Assembly (NCBI RefSeq): GCF_017348835.2
Contig: NZ_CP071375.1
Strand: one strand, 5' to 3'
Source: Escherichia coli
GTDB lineage: Bacteria > Pseudomonadota > Gammaproteobacteria > Enterobacterales > Enterobacteriaceae
Length of the DNA stretch: 64,000 nucleotides
In this document: positions 55,100 to 63,891 of the stretch, piece by piece
How the letters are laid out: each line of letters opens with the position of its first letter
Numbering within the stretch: position 1 is the first letter of the stretch
The notes under the pieces: generated by a model
What the model was told of the DNA's origin: nothing
Seen by the model: the letters and a program-made list of their open reading frames with translations, nothing else
The model's database searches: none
Position numbers and translations under genes: made by a program

Positions 55100-56146
55100 T
55101 TAACGTCCTGCTTTCAGCTTCTGATAATACTCTTCATAAATGCTGCTGGCTGCGCCAACGTCATTCTGCCATTCGCCATTTTTAATGGTTTCAGCATCCG
55201 GGTAGAGCGTCTTATCGTTCGCCACTTCTGGACTTAACAGCTTACGCGCCGCAAGGTTTGGCGTTGGATAACCGATAGTTTCAGCAACCTGTTTTGCCAC
55301 ATCCGGGCGCAGCAGGAAGTTGATCAATTTCAGCGCGCCTTCTTTGTTTTTGGCATTTGCCGGGATCGCCAGGCTGTCCATCCAGAATATGCCGCCTTCT
55401 TTCGGCCACACCACGTCAATAGGCGTACCCGCCTGGCGTGCAACGAAAGCAGAACCGTTCCAGATCATGCCGAGGTTAACTTCGCCTTCCATGTACGGGT
55501 TAGCCGGGTTATCGGAGTTAAACGCTGCGACGTTTGGCATCAGTTTTTTCAGCTCGTTATATGCAGCTTCAATCTCTTTCGGATCGGTGGTGTTACCGGA
55601 GTAGCCCAGCTTACGTAGCGCCATCTGGAACACTTCACGGGCATCGTCGGTCAGCAGCAGGCTGCCTTTGTACTCAGGCTTCCACAAATCGGCCCAGCTG
55701 GTGACAGATTTCGGATCCACCGCATCACCGTTAACGCCAATCGCCGTCGCACCCCAGATATACGGAATGGAGTAATCGTTATTCGGGTCAAACGGCTTAT
55801 TGAGCATGTCTGGATCGAGATTGCTGAAGTTCGTTAACTTCGACTTGTCGATCTTCTGGATCATCCCTTCTTTACGCATTTTATCGACGTAATAGGTTGA
55901 AGGAACCACCAGGTCATAGGCACCGTCTTTGTACGTTTTCAGCTTGGCATACATGGTTTCGTTCGACTCGTAAGTCGAATAGATAACCTTAATACCGGTT
56001 TCTTTGGTGAACTGTTCAAGCAGTCCTGGCGGCACGTACTCGGTCCAGTTGTAGAAATACAGCGTGTTGTTGTCATCGGCGTGAGCGGCGCTCATGCCCA
56101 GTGCCAGAGCACCCGCCGCGAGCAGGTGGCGTGACCATTTTTTCAT
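55100..56146 (-). CDS. potD: spermidine/putrescine ABC transporter periplasmic binding protein
   Basis: 348-aa ORF with signal peptide, recognised as PotD. Confidence 0.94.
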   Translation of the reverse strand: MKKWSRHLLAAGALALGMSAAHADDNNTLYFYNWTEYVPPGLLEQFTKETGIKVIYSTYESNETMYAKLKTYKDGAYDLVVPSTYYVDKMRKEGMIQKIDKSKLTNFSNLDPDMLNKPFDPNNDYSIPYIWGATAIGVNGDAVDPKSVTSWADLWKPEYKGSLLLTDDAREVFQMALRKLGYSGNTTDPKEIEAAYNELKKLMPNVAAFNSDNPANPYMEGEVNLGMIWNGSAFVARQAGTPIDVVWPKEGGIFWMDSLAIPANAKNKEGALKLINFLLRPDVAKQVAETIGYPTPNLAARKLLSPEVANDKTLYPDAETIKNGEWQNDVGAASSIYEEYYQKLKAGR

Positions 56147-56937
56147 TTAACGTCCCCTGTGTTACCTTTCGTTTTATCACGAGCAATAAGCTGGCTGGCA
56201 ATAACCATCACCAGCGACAGCACCAGTAATATGGTTGCCAGCGCGTTAACTTCCGGCGATACGCCGACTTTGACCATCGAATAAATTTTTAACGGCAGAA
56301 TTTCATAACTCGGCCCAGTGACGAACGAAGAAACAACCACATCGTCCATCGACAGGGTAAAGCTTAACACCCAGCCCGCCGCCACCGCTGGCATTGCCAG
56401 TGGCAGAATGATTTTTCGCAGAATGGTAAATTCGCTGGCACCGAGATCTTTCGCCGCTTCCAGCATTCGCACGTCAAAACCTTTCAGGCGCGAATACACC
56501 GTCACCACCACAAATGGCAGGCAGAAGGTGATATGCGAGAACAGCAGCGACCAGAAGCCAAGCTGAATACCCAGCAGCATAAACAGCACCAGCAGCGAAA
56601 TTGCCATCACGATATCTGGTGACATCATTACCACAAACAGCATTCCGCTAACGAACGGCTTACCACGAAAGCGATAACGGTACAGTGCAACTGCCGTCAG
56701 TGAACCGATAAGCGTAGCAAACGTCGCTGAAAACACCGCCATCGTCAATGAATGCTGAGCTGCCTGCAACAGACTGTCGTTGTTCATCAGCAGGCTATAC
56801 CATTTAGTGGTAAAACCCTGCCAGTTGATGCCAAAGCGCGAGCTGTTGAAAGAGTTCACAATCAAAATAATGATTGGAATATACAGGTACGCGTAGATAG
56901 CGGTCATAAAACCGCCGCGAAGCAGTCGACCGATCAT
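56143..56937 (-). CDS. potC: spermidine/putrescine ABC transporter permease
   Basis: 264-aa ORF recognised as PotC; 4-nt overlap with potD. Confidence 0.94.
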   Translation of the reverse strand: MIGRLLRGGFMTAIYAYLYIPIIILIVNSFNSSRFGINWQGFTTKWYSLLMNNDSLLQAAQHSLTMAVFSATFATLIGSLTAVALYRYRFRGKPFVSGMLFVVMMSPDIVMAISLLVLFMLLGIQLGFWSLLFSHITFCLPFVVVTVYSRLKGFDVRMLEAAKDLGASEFTILRKIILPLAMPAVAAGWVLSFTLSMDDVVVSSFVTGPSYEILPLKIYSMVKVGVSPEVNALATILLVLSLVMVIASQLIARDKTKGNTGDVK

Positions 56938-56969
56938 TCGAGTTCCACCTTTTTATTCATAAGGCGGGA
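56934..56969 (-). pseudogene. potB: 3'-terminal remnant of potB, cut off by the prophage junction
   Basis: Minus-strand frame ending in TGA that overlaps the potC ATG (ATGA) encodes ...SRLMNKKVELE; this matches my recollection of the PotB C-terminus, and the frame is open for only 37 codons (to 57047) with no membrane-permease body upstream. Confidence 0.45.
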
Positions 56970-57245
56970 CACTTTCAGGTTTTTGAATTTATTCAATTTT
57001 TTCCTTTCTCCAAAATCTCTCCAAAACTTTTCCCCAAAACAGGACCACGCATTTTACAGCATTTTTATACATGGGTGAGCTTACTAGGACAGAAAAGTAT
57101 TCCAGTTTGTTTACCCATATCGCTTTCCGAATGAGATTTTTGATGTGATTTCTTCGTGTTGAAAAACCACATAATGTGGTATTAGAATTAGCTATCAAGA
57201 TTCACTTTGAATCCGTTTTGAATCCCATTGAACTCAGGAGTGACT

Positions 57246-57449
57246 ATGAAGCGTAAAAGTGTGGCTTTGTTACAAGCCATTGGCTCGGTTATAGCCCTGA
57301 GCCCGACGGTCGTTTCAGCAAATGGCATGCCAGCGAATCCAGTTTCCGCTTTGCGTCAGGATGCTGCGGCTATCAGAGGCGATTTCCAAAAAGCAATGGT
57401 ATCCGTTAACGTTGAAAAGCTGAACAATGCCAGATCAAAAAGAAAGTGA
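57246..57449 (+). CDS. small secreted protein, unknown function (prophage cargo)
   Basis: 67 aa, MKRKSVALLQAIGSVIALSPTVVSA is a signal peptide with a likely cleavage site after VSA; AGGAG Shine-Dalgarno 5 nt upstream; the listed ORF starts at an in-frame TTG at 57228. Confidence 0.55.
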   Translation: MKRKSVALLQAIGSVIALSPTVVSANGMPANPVSALRQDAAAIRGDFQKAMVSVNVEKLNNARSKRK

Positions 57450-57534
57450 GAACACCAAACTCACTTGTGAATAACAAAAGGATAATGAACTGGTTTCTCG
57501 AGTAATCGAAAATCCAGAGGTCTTAAACAGGGTT

Positions 57535-57894
57535 TTGGATAGTCCGCAGGTGCGGGCTATTGTTTGCCAGCATTTTCAGGGGCCTGTTCCGCCACCTTCA
57601 ATGCTTAAAAAGTATGATCAACTGGTGCCTGGGCTTGCAAATCGACTTGTTGAGTTGACCGAAAAAGAGCAGGCTCATCGCCATAAAACAGTGGCTGATA
57701 GCATTGATATTGCCAGAGATGGTCAAACAAAGGCTTTTTGGTTGGCAATATTGATCATCTTAGCTGCCACTGTCTTTGGCGTCATGGGGGAGACAGTTCT
57801 TGCCGGAACTCTCGTTTCAATAGATCTTGTTGCATTGGTTACGGCATTTATTGTTGGAAAACATTATTCTAAGCAGGAACCTGATCAAGATTAG
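57535..57894 (+). CDS. DUF2335-like two-transmembrane-helix membrane protein (prophage cargo)
   Basis: N-terminal PVPPPSMLKKYDQLVPGLANRLVELTEKEQAHRH followed by two hydrophobic helices; start uncertain (TTG 57535 or ATG 57601), no strong Shine-Dalgarno. Confidence 0.5.
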   Translation: MDSPQVRAIVCQHFQGPVPPPSMLKKYDQLVPGLANRLVELTEKEQAHRHKTVADSIDIARDGQTKAFWLAILIILAATVFGVMGETVLAGTLVSIDLVALVTAFIVGKHYSKQEPDQD

Positions 57895-57902
57895 TCTCCG
57901 AA

Positions 57903-57925
57903 CCCCGGTTGATGCCGGGGTTTTT
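57903..57925 (+). terminator. rho-independent terminator after the cargo cassette
   Basis: CCCCGG-TTGATG-CCGGGG followed by TTTTT, 9 nt after the stop codon. Confidence 0.8.
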
Positions 57926-57970
57926 ACACTAGCAAAGCAATATCAACATTTTTCAGCTGCATTTATTTCG

Positions 57971-59089
57971 TCAAACAACCAATTTAACCCATTCCTGACC
58001 ACGAGTATCGTTATAACGATCGGTGGTTGCTTGGACTTTATGTCCCAGTAATGTTTTTGTATCAATACCCTGCGCGCGGTACAGTCGTTCTGACAGGGAG
58101 CGTTGTTCATGAAATGTTGGCGGAGTTTTTCCTGCTGGTGGAGTTATCCCAGCCAGATCCCGTGCTTTGGCAAAGTAGTCGCTCAGGTTGTCTTTACTCA
58201 TCGGCTTTGGTTGTTTCTGGTGCCGACTATGGATTAGATATGGACTTAATATTCTGTCTCGGCACCCATCAATAACTTCTTTTAACGTTATCCCAATGGC
58301 ATCACAGCGTAGTGTAAGCGGTAACGCCAGACGCATTCCGGTTTTTCCCTGGGTGATATGCAAGTGTTCGTTCCACACATCTGAAAAACGCATGTGGCAA
58401 ATGTCATCACGGCGCTGACCAGTAACAATCGCAAGAAGCATTGCGTTACGGATAAAGTGTTTTTCAGGCGTTGCGTTGTAAATTTTTTGCCAGTCTTCCA
58501 GGGTGAGCCTGGCTCTAGTTACTTTAGGGATCGGTTTACGGGTAGCCTCCGGAGGATTCCATCCAGGAGGAACTTCCCCTGCATGCTGTGCTTCTTTATA
58601 AATATCAACCCATAATCCACGATTTACTCTCGCTGTGCTGACCATGTCTTTATCCAGCCACTCATCCAGTATTAATGCAAAGTCTCTTACTTCCAGTTCT
58701 TTCAATGGGTGGTTTCCCAGACGGGAAACCAGGTATGCAGCCATTCGGGCTTTTTCTTTGTGAGTTGTAGCTGCAATATCTCCATTTTTCAGTCGCGTGT
58801 CCTGTATTTTCAGATATCGATCAACCCATGCCTTTAATCTGATACCCCGACGCTTTGTTGCTGACGGACTTTCATCAATTTTGCGCATGAAATATTCAGC
58901 CTCTGCTGCAGCTATTCGCTGATTGGCTGTGGAAGCGATTTTTTCTGCCTTACCTTTGTCTGTTCCGAGCCCGTGAAATTTTCCAGTCACAGGGTTTTTA
59001 TACTGGTAGTAAACTCTGCCAGTTCTGCGATCAAATTTTTCGTAAAGTCCGGCTACGTCAGTGCTGTTTTTTCGTGGCCTCGGTGACAT
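57971..59089 (-). CDS. int: phage integrase (tyrosine recombinase, lambda Int family)
   Basis: 372 aa; lambda-Int-like C-terminal catalytic region (VTGQRRDDICHMRFSDV, PPTFHEQRSLSERLY, LLGHK, conserved Tyr in TDRYNDTRGQEW). Confidence 0.9.
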   Translation of the reverse strand: MSPRPRKNSTDVAGLYEKFDRRTGRVYYQYKNPVTGKFHGLGTDKGKAEKIASTANQRIAAAEAEYFMRKIDESPSATKRRGIRLKAWVDRYLKIQDTRLKNGDIAATTHKEKARMAAYLVSRLGNHPLKELEVRDFALILDEWLDKDMVSTARVNRGLWVDIYKEAQHAGEVPPGWNPPEATRKPIPKVTRARLTLEDWQKIYNATPEKHFIRNAMLLAIVTGQRRDDICHMRFSDVWNEHLHITQGKTGMRLALPLTLRCDAIGITLKEVIDGCRDRILSPYLIHSRHQKQPKPMSKDNLSDYFAKARDLAGITPPAGKTPPTFHEQRSLSERLYRAQGIDTKTLLGHKVQATTDRYNDTRGQEWVKLVV

Positions 59090-59336
59090 GAGTTAAAATC
59101 TCCTTCAGTGCATCATCATCGCCAGTATGAATTTCCGGCGCAATTCCTGTTTCACCAGGTCCAACAAATACTGCTCGGCGATCTATCAGCCAACGCCCAC
59201 GAATTTTTTGTGGTCTTGGAACGATGTATCCTAGTTTTCCGTATTTCACCAGGGTAGTGTTTGTTATTGGGAGACTGAACCGTTTTGGCTTCCACTCATC
59301 GAGCGTTATCAGGTACTGTTCGCTCATGGCTATCAC
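59058..59336 (-). CDS. xis: excisionase (Xis)
   Basis: 92 aa; YLITLDEW...GRWLIDRRAV resembles lambda Xis (MYLTLQEW...); 32-nt overlap with the int start as in lambda; start could be Met1 or Met4. Confidence 0.75.
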   Translation of the reverse strand: MIAMSEQYLITLDEWKPKRFSLPITNTTLVKYGKLGYIVPRPQKIRGRWLIDRRAVFVGPGETGIAPEIHTGDDDALKEILTHVTEATKKQH

Positions 59337-63864: not shown

Positions 63865-63891
63865 TATTGTGTGTTTTTTGGAGTTCATTCG

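Follow-up and report, generated by a model that had tools for sequence, protein, structure and literature searches.

The window (the whole 64,000-nucleotide stretch analysed) comes from an Escherichia coli chromosome and matches strain PE164 with 100% identity. A lambdoid prophage of approximately 54 kb, with an early region that is Rac-like, genes for type III effectors (NleG, EspW) and IS3 insertions, sits in the 3′ end of potB. One of its attachment sites, attL, lies in the window and the other, attR, lies outside the window in PE164. In prophage-free genomes potB directly follows potC in the orientation used here, with its stop codon overlapping the potC start. The features at the attL end are listed in Table 1; coordinates preceded by an L number refer to loci in our own numbering.

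Table 1. Features at the attL end of the potB prophage and in the adjoining bacterial flank (window coordinates)
Feature	Position	Strand	Comment
potD	55100–56146	−	bacterial flank
potC	56143–56937	−	bacterial flank of attL; separated from potAB by the prophage
att common core, CCTT(C/T)TTATTCA	56948–56959		within the last potB codons; attB/attL/attR identity stops here
P′ arm of attL	56960–57066	+	phage DNA common to all prophages of this family at potB
possible weak IHF (H′-like) site, between core and P′1	56991–57003	+	ATTCAATTTTTTC; 2 mismatches to WATCAANNNNTTR
putative arm-type site, P′1-like	57005–57015	+	TTTCTCCAAAA; invariant in six E. coli arms and Citrobacter
putative arm-type site, P′2-like	57016–57026	+	TCTCTCCAAAA; invariant in six E. 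coli arms and Citrobacter
putative arm-type site, P′3-like	57029–57039	+	TTTCCCCAAAA; 8-mer invariant in E. coli arms; Citrobacter has CGCCAAAA
moron, 904-bp insertion	57067–57970	+	small hypothetical protein and DUF2335 protein (Pfam); splits P′ arm from int
int, lambda-family tyrosine integrase, 372 aa	57971–59089	−	N-terminal arm-DNA-binding domain; presumed reader of the repeats
xis, excisionase	59058–59327	−	RefSeq annotation; Pfam Exc, E 7.8e-5

Comparison of attL in the window with attB in a K-12-like genome and attR in PE164 identified a 12-bp common core, CCTTCTTATTCA, that is located 11–22 bp upstream of the potB stop codon. Prophage-free genomes align to the window only as far as 56959, and phage DNA starts at 56960. 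By analogy with lambda, the 7-bp overlap would be TTATTCA (56953–56959), flanked in the reconstructed attP by the core-type half-sites TGCCTTC and TAAGGCG. With the putative half-sites assigned in this way, the attP core as reconstructed (TGCCTTC-TTATTCA-TAAGGCG) does not resemble the TYTCYCCAAAA motif of the phage arm that is described below. Position 56952 of attL, directly left of TTATTCA, is a T in the window and in strains 9000 and 96_1414P, whereas attB, the attR of the same strain and other lysogens have C at the equivalent position. This polymorphism could be a resolved heteroduplex that marks the limit of the overlap region, or it could be a recurrent SNP in the B core-type site.

Integration gives PotB a phage-encoded C-terminus, so that the 287 aa product ends in LLNKKATEIDD, compared with LLNKKVELE in the 285 aa protein (window 56937–56959; L005 4530–4561). 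The potC gene retains its Shine–Dalgarno sequence and loses both the overlap of the potB stop with its own start (ATGA) and the potA promoter. The prophage is carried by 28% of E. coli genomes, and candidates for potCD transcription in these lysogens are read-through from int and a weak promoter-like site on the minus strand (57198–57171).

Of 5426 complete E. coli genomes, 1514 contain the P′ arm, which RefSeq never annotates. Lysogens without the 904-bp insertion match the window exactly to 57066 and then enter int almost directly. In O145:H28 RM13516 and others that lack the moron, the int stop codon is approximately 37 bp past the arm and approximately 64 bp past the third repeat unit, while in the window int is 931 bp from the array owing to the moron. 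The insertion point is 27 bp beyond the last repeat and the array was left intact. Judged from matches that span longer queries, the moron is in only about 210 of the 1514 genomes that have the att arm. It is in the opposite orientation to int and encodes a 67-aa protein (57247–57450), which begins like a signal peptide and does not match Pfam, and a DUF2335 membrane protein (57535–57894) that is followed by a hairpin at about 57900–57925. A promoter-like site, TTGAAA-18-TAGAAT (10/12 matches), lies within 57159–57225. Its spacer contains a perfect palindrome, CCACATAATGTGG (57167–57179), that looks like an operator, and two TTTGAATCC repeats, 11 bp apart, are present in the moron leader (57206–57225).

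Residues 1–64 of the prophage Int match Pfam PF09003 (Arm-DNA-bind_1) with an E value of 3.7e-21 and 75 bits against a cut-off of 22, and a Phage_integrase match is also present. The protein aligns over its full length with the lambda Int structures 1Z1B and 5J0N (E 2e-54). Its sequence identity is 35% with lambda Int and 44–45% with the Int of phage 21 and with IntE of the ompW prophage PPompW. The xis gene overlaps the start of int, and its product is 31–46% identical to the Xis proteins of phage 21 and PPompW, making Xis homologous in all three elements compared.

An earlier, sequence-only reading of the window had described three CYCCAAAA repeats, each about one helical turn from the next, just inside the end of a prophage. 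The octamers are as described, with CTCCAAAA at 57008–57015 and 57019–57026 and CCCCAAAA at 57032–57039, all on the + strand, and the core defined by the attB/attL/attR comparison places them just inside the prophage end. The start-to-start spacings are indeed 11 and 13 bp, but this is slightly more than one helical turn and out of phase with 10.5 bp. A repeat search extended the unit to the 11 nt TYTCYCCAAAA, with copies starting at 57005, 57016 and 57029 (local context tttcctttCTCCAAAAtctCTCCAAAActtttCCCCAAAAcagg). The array starts 46 bp from the core into phage DNA, and occupies about +49 to +83 relative to the centre of the putative overlap.

CYCCAAAA is found four times on the two strands of the 64-kb window, where approximately five copies are expected by chance, and three of the four form the array. 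The fourth, CTCCAAAA on the minus strand at 63876–63883, is isolated in the prophage early region and fits chance. By a Poisson estimate, same-strand triples within 32 bp are expected approximately 2e-6 times per window, and when the 107-bp arm was shuffled 200,000 times, no shuffle yielded even two CYCCAAAA copies. The array is non-random. It is located in DNA of low complexity: the + strand is free of G for 56 bp (56986–57041), every unit ends in A4, and there are further T-tracts in the flanks.

Among six E. coli arms 19 of the 107 columns vary, and none of the 19 falls in the three octamers (hypergeometric P 0.005, relatedness ignored). When the Citrobacter arm was added, one of 34 variable columns was in the octamers (P 0.0004, relatedness again ignored). 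A scan of IMG/VR with Int returned 80 loci, all at least 98% identical and most ending at the int stop codon, and was uninformative on divergence; the nine loci that reach the arm all retain the three 8-mers.

The P arm of attR includes one exact copy of the unit, GTTCTCCAAAAT (L005 4421–4431), the end of which is 119 bp short of the core; no other CYCCAAAA occurs in 20 kb. The motif is therefore present in the other arm of the prophage, where the sequence-only reading had suggested looking for it in inverted orientation, but the copy is direct, as is lambda P1 relative to P′1–3. Corresponding P-arm copies are found in phage 21 and PPompW, 119 bp and 121 bp, respectively, from the start of the duplicated host segment. 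TTCTCCAAAA does not vary among five P arms whose overall identity falls as low as about 86%. In this prophage, phage 21 and PPompW, a perfect IHF consensus, WATCAANNNNTTR, lies 9–20 bp past the P-arm copy, against a background of approximately one per 19 kb, and substitutions in this site across the five P arms are confined to N or R positions. The consensus sequences (L005 4440–4452, L007 435–447 and L126 482–494) adjoin the P1-like site in all three elements; phage 21 and PPompW have the consensus on one strand and the potB prophage has it on the other. The core, three P′ sites, one P site and the IHF consensus bring the total span of attP to approximately 221 bp.

A search of the P arm for an inverted, P2-like site returned a sole candidate, TCTATCCATAA (L005 4453–4463), with two mismatches and approximately 0.3 such matches expected by chance. 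Although it is 32 bp from the P1-like copy, as in lambda, it is at chance level and has no counterpart in phage 21 or PPompW, and we do not claim it as P2. No match to WATCAANNNNTTR with up to one mismatch was found anywhere in 56948–57080. The segment at 56991–57003 is a possible weak IHF site, and the Citrobacter sequence aligned to it, AATCAACTTTTTC, has one mismatch to the consensus. Between the IHF site and the core of attR there is also a conserved hairpin or palindrome, GGCATGC..TTTACT-CGAC-AGTAAA..GCATGCC (L005 4464–4497), that folds as RNA on the int-sense strand with −18.9 kcal/mol (z = −5.3). Diverged P arms include changes that perfect its stem. It could act on int transcripts in the attP state as a sib/tI-like element, or it could be a palindrome to which a protein binds.

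Among the closest described counterparts of the array are the dodecamer arm-type sites of the icd-integrating lambdoids phage 21 and e14. The phage 21 GenBank entry OL657228.1 carries the annotation 'attP ... 3 subsites P1P2P3; consensus YYTTCCCCAAAA', 11 bp from the int stop codon. The subsites, TCTTCCCCAAAA CTTTCCCCAAAA C CCTTCCCCAAAA, are likewise three tandem same-strand units at the 3′ end of int, with spacings of 12 and 13 bp (11 and 13 bp here), and phage 21 shares the single P-arm copy in the same orientation, followed by an IHF consensus. The phage 21 Int is 44% identical to the Int of the potB prophage overall and 50% identical in the arm-binding domain. When the window was compared with YYTTCCCCAAAA, the third unit (57028–57039, TTTTCCCCAAAA) fitted exactly, the first (CTTTCTCCAAAA) had one mismatch and the second (ATCTCTCCAAAA) had three; the first two window units have CTCC where phage 21 has CCCC. 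The elements also differ in host target, which is the 3′ end of potB here and icd for phage 21 and e14, and in the distance from core to repeats, which is 46 bp here and about 230 bp in phage 21, where the phage supplies a replacement icd 3′ end. Unlike phage 21, the window has the 904-bp insertion between array and int, but the sister prophages that lack it share the phage 21 architecture. The P-arm copy and the last P′ copy delimit a segment of 397 bp in the phage 21 sequence. Wang et al. reportedly proposed in 1997 that the 'repeated dodecamers' of phage 21 are arm recognition sites, and the minimal phage 21 attP in vitro is said in the same work to be 366–418 bp, just enclosing the outermost dodecamers. 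The 397-bp span fits this range.

PPompW, an STEC prophage with IntE and XisE, has the three units TCTCTGCAAAA, CCTCTGCAAAA and CCTCTGCAAAA, spaced 11 and 13 bp and located 7 bp from the int stop codon. It also has one P-arm copy followed by an IHF consensus. Its motif, CTCTGCAAAA, has G in place of C, and it differs from the potB prophage in host target and in the clade of the Int N-domain (GLSPYFD...VYWRY).

The lambda sites P′1, P′2 and P′3 all lie on one strand, at +54, +64 and +75 relative to the core centre (+54 to +84 in total), and abut the int stop codon, with spacings of 10 and 11 bp rather than the 11 and 13 bp seen here. Lambda P1 shares this orientation and occupies −142 to −133, compared with −137 to −127 for the P-arm copy of the potB prophage. 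Lambda P2 is inverted, at −111, and has no clear inverted equivalent here. The two systems share a heterobivalent Int with Arm-DNA-bind_1, the gene order xis-int-P′ arm-core and an IHF site after P1, and the attP of lambda spans about 240 bp. However, the lambda arm consensus, C/AAGTCACTAT, is unrelated or only faintly similar to the motif found here, as in lambda P′2 CAGTCAAAAT compared with TCTCCAAAAT.

To define the wider family, an alignment of three integrases was used in a scan limited to one genome per species, and 36 loci were obtained. We then looked in the 400 bp that follow int for any 8-mer occurring three times at 9–15 bp spacing, with the motif left free, and (C/T)NCCAAAA-type triples emerged in almost every full-length relative. 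The same array adjoins int in 23 of 25 relatives, as three YYTCNSCAAAA units spaced 11–12 then 13–14 bp and 0–67 bp from the int stop codon. In addition to E. albertii, the relatives are from Citrobacter, Superficieibacter, Edwardsiella, Providencia, Hafnia, Erwinia, Rosenbergiella, Pantoea, Mangrovibacter, Buttiauxella, Kosakonia, Trabulsiella and Enterovibrio. On the far side of the array there is an icd 3′ end and terminator in eleven, ompW in one, potB in Citrobacter, where Int is 76% identical, and other sequences elsewhere. As the DNA beyond the array differs among relatives, we conclude that the array travels with int and not with the host target.

When the sites of the relatives were anchored on CAAAA, the C three bases upstream was invariant in 75/75 sites, and the two bases that precede this C were pyrimidines in 75/75 and 74/75 sites. 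The two bases between the invariant C and CAAAA occur as three variants that track clades of the Int N-domain. CCCC is found in phage 21-like elements, CTCC in this prophage and the Citrobacter relative (L090), and CTGC in IntE-like elements, where all three units carry it. Elements of the CCCC and CTCC types often have one deviating unit, and the window, with CTCC/CTCC/CCCC, is one of these. The distance from core to array is about 46 bp here and over 100–200 bp in ompW and icd elements. As this distance varies widely in the family, the geometric match of the potB prophage to lambda is not general.

The two relatives without a canonical triple downstream of int are those in Erwinia phyllosphaerae (L099) and Providencia alcalifaciens BIGb0506 (L110). 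In L110 int is truncated and there is only a weak TATCAAAA-type repeat, and in L099 no repeat was found within 450 bp. These may be decayed elements, or a moron-like insertion may be present.

Taken together, the comparisons indicate that the array very probably represents the P′1-P′2-P′3 arm-type sites of the potB attachment site, recognised by the N-terminal domain of the prophage Int. The sequence-only reading had proposed arm-type sites beside an att core, and this is supported by the attR copy, the arrays in the relatives and the phage 21 annotation. It had left open whether the sites serve integrase or an accessory factor such as Xis, IHF or Fis, and here Int is favoured by the position of the array, which is that of lambda P′1–3. 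The motif variant in an element tends to be common to its copies and tracks the clade of the Int N-domain, which we also count in favour of Int. If so, the array is an ordinary new example, hitherto unannotated, of a trio that is already annotated in phage 21.

The alternative that the array binds an accessory factor and not Int appears improbable, although some observations suit it. Lambda Xis also binds three phased direct repeats, X1-X1.5-X2, and Xis of the potB prophage might likewise form a head-to-tail filament on the array. Moreover, covariation alone cannot separate Int from Xis because Xis is also homologous across the elements compared, and the motif could covary with either protein. 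The positions of the repeats argue against Xis. Lambda has its Xis and Fis sites in the P arm, the Xis array being between P2 and the core, while the array described here belongs to the P′ arm of attL and lies beside int, where lambda has Int sites. The one extra copy at a P1-like position in the other arm is again an Int-like and not a Xis-like distribution. IHF and Fis are disfavoured by the repeats themselves: no IHF consensus is found within or overlapping them, and with no G on the + strand from 56986 to 57041 the G-N13-C frame of Fis cannot be placed in them on either strand.

If Int is the ligand, the lambda paradigm suggests how the sites would be used. Each TYTCYCCAAAA unit would be bound by the N-terminal arm-binding domain of an Int molecule (residues about 1–64), and the C-terminal (central and catalytic) domains of the arm-bound molecules would hold the core sites at 56948–56959. 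DNA bending would allow arm-bound Int to reach the core and form an intasome for integration or, with Xis, for excision. The bends would come from IHF in the P arm and perhaps also at the weak site between the core and P′1, where IHF is presumed to act. The attR copy, in the same orientation as the array, would take the role of lambda P1. In lambda, integration relies on P1, P′2 and P′3, and excision on P2, P′1 and P′2. Binding, the use of the sites in integration and excision and the position of the overlap are all modelled on lambda.

A second alternative, which we consider very unlikely, is that the phased A-tracts produce an intrinsic bend or are part of an UP element or promoter that restores potCD transcription. 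The A4 ends of the units and the flanking T-tracts would suit such a role, and the prophage splits potABCD with potC on the minus strand only 70 bp downstream. However, the same array is found in relatives at icd, ompW and other 3′ ends, where no downstream host gene needs a promoter. The positions other than A (the invariant C and the pyrimidines) are as well conserved as the A-tract, and the 11–13 bp spacing does not keep phase with the helical repeat. A promoter scan found no sigma-70-like site overlapping the repeats, the nearest minus-strand site being the one at 57198–57171 inside the moron, and no terminator overlapping the repeats was found. Finally, it is extremely improbable that the array arose by replication slippage or chance in pyrimidine-rich DNA and has no function, for which the low complexity and lack of G could be cited, or that it is an RNA element in the int 3′ UTR: the array and its spacing are kept across genera and att sites, substitutions avoid the 8-mers, the shuffles never reproduced the array, Rfam returned no credible match (E 0.29 and 0.6, far below gathering scores), and the predicted RNA structure of the minus strand was no better than that of shuffled controls (z = 0.02).

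Returning to Int as the reader of the array, we suggest tentatively, as a possibility that falls short of being probable, that the arrangement is the fixed layout of an integrase subfamily that would include phage 21, e14, the ompW and potB prophages and their relatives in many Enterobacterales and in one member of the Vibrionaceae. This layout would consist of three units spaced 11–12 then 13–14 bp and a P1-like unit 119–121 bp from the core. The two central bases (CC, TC or TG before CAAAA) would act as a specificity code for arm recognition that prevents cross-reaction between co-resident prophages. The P′ array also tolerates distances of about 46 to 230 bp from the core, and this would imply a more flexible intasome than that of the lambda model. 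What is modestly new is the '11–12 then 13–14' architecture across genera and the clade-specific two-base variants; the array in the window adds an example and not a principle. The attP anatomy could be used for exact calls of prophage boundaries, prediction of excision competence and the design of vectors that integrate at the potB site.

Genomes that carry the arm include STEC of serogroups O157, O145, O121 and O111 and EPEC, and potB prophages can carry type III effectors, as with NleG and EspW in PE164. The PE164 prophage itself has several pseudogenes and two IS3-family insertions (L002 6536–7749 and 36281–37494), and its tape-measure gene is interrupted by one of the two insertions; it is therefore probably defective. 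Its type III secretion effector cargo (NleG family, EspW and DUF1076 proteins) is located just inside attR (L005 288–4256).
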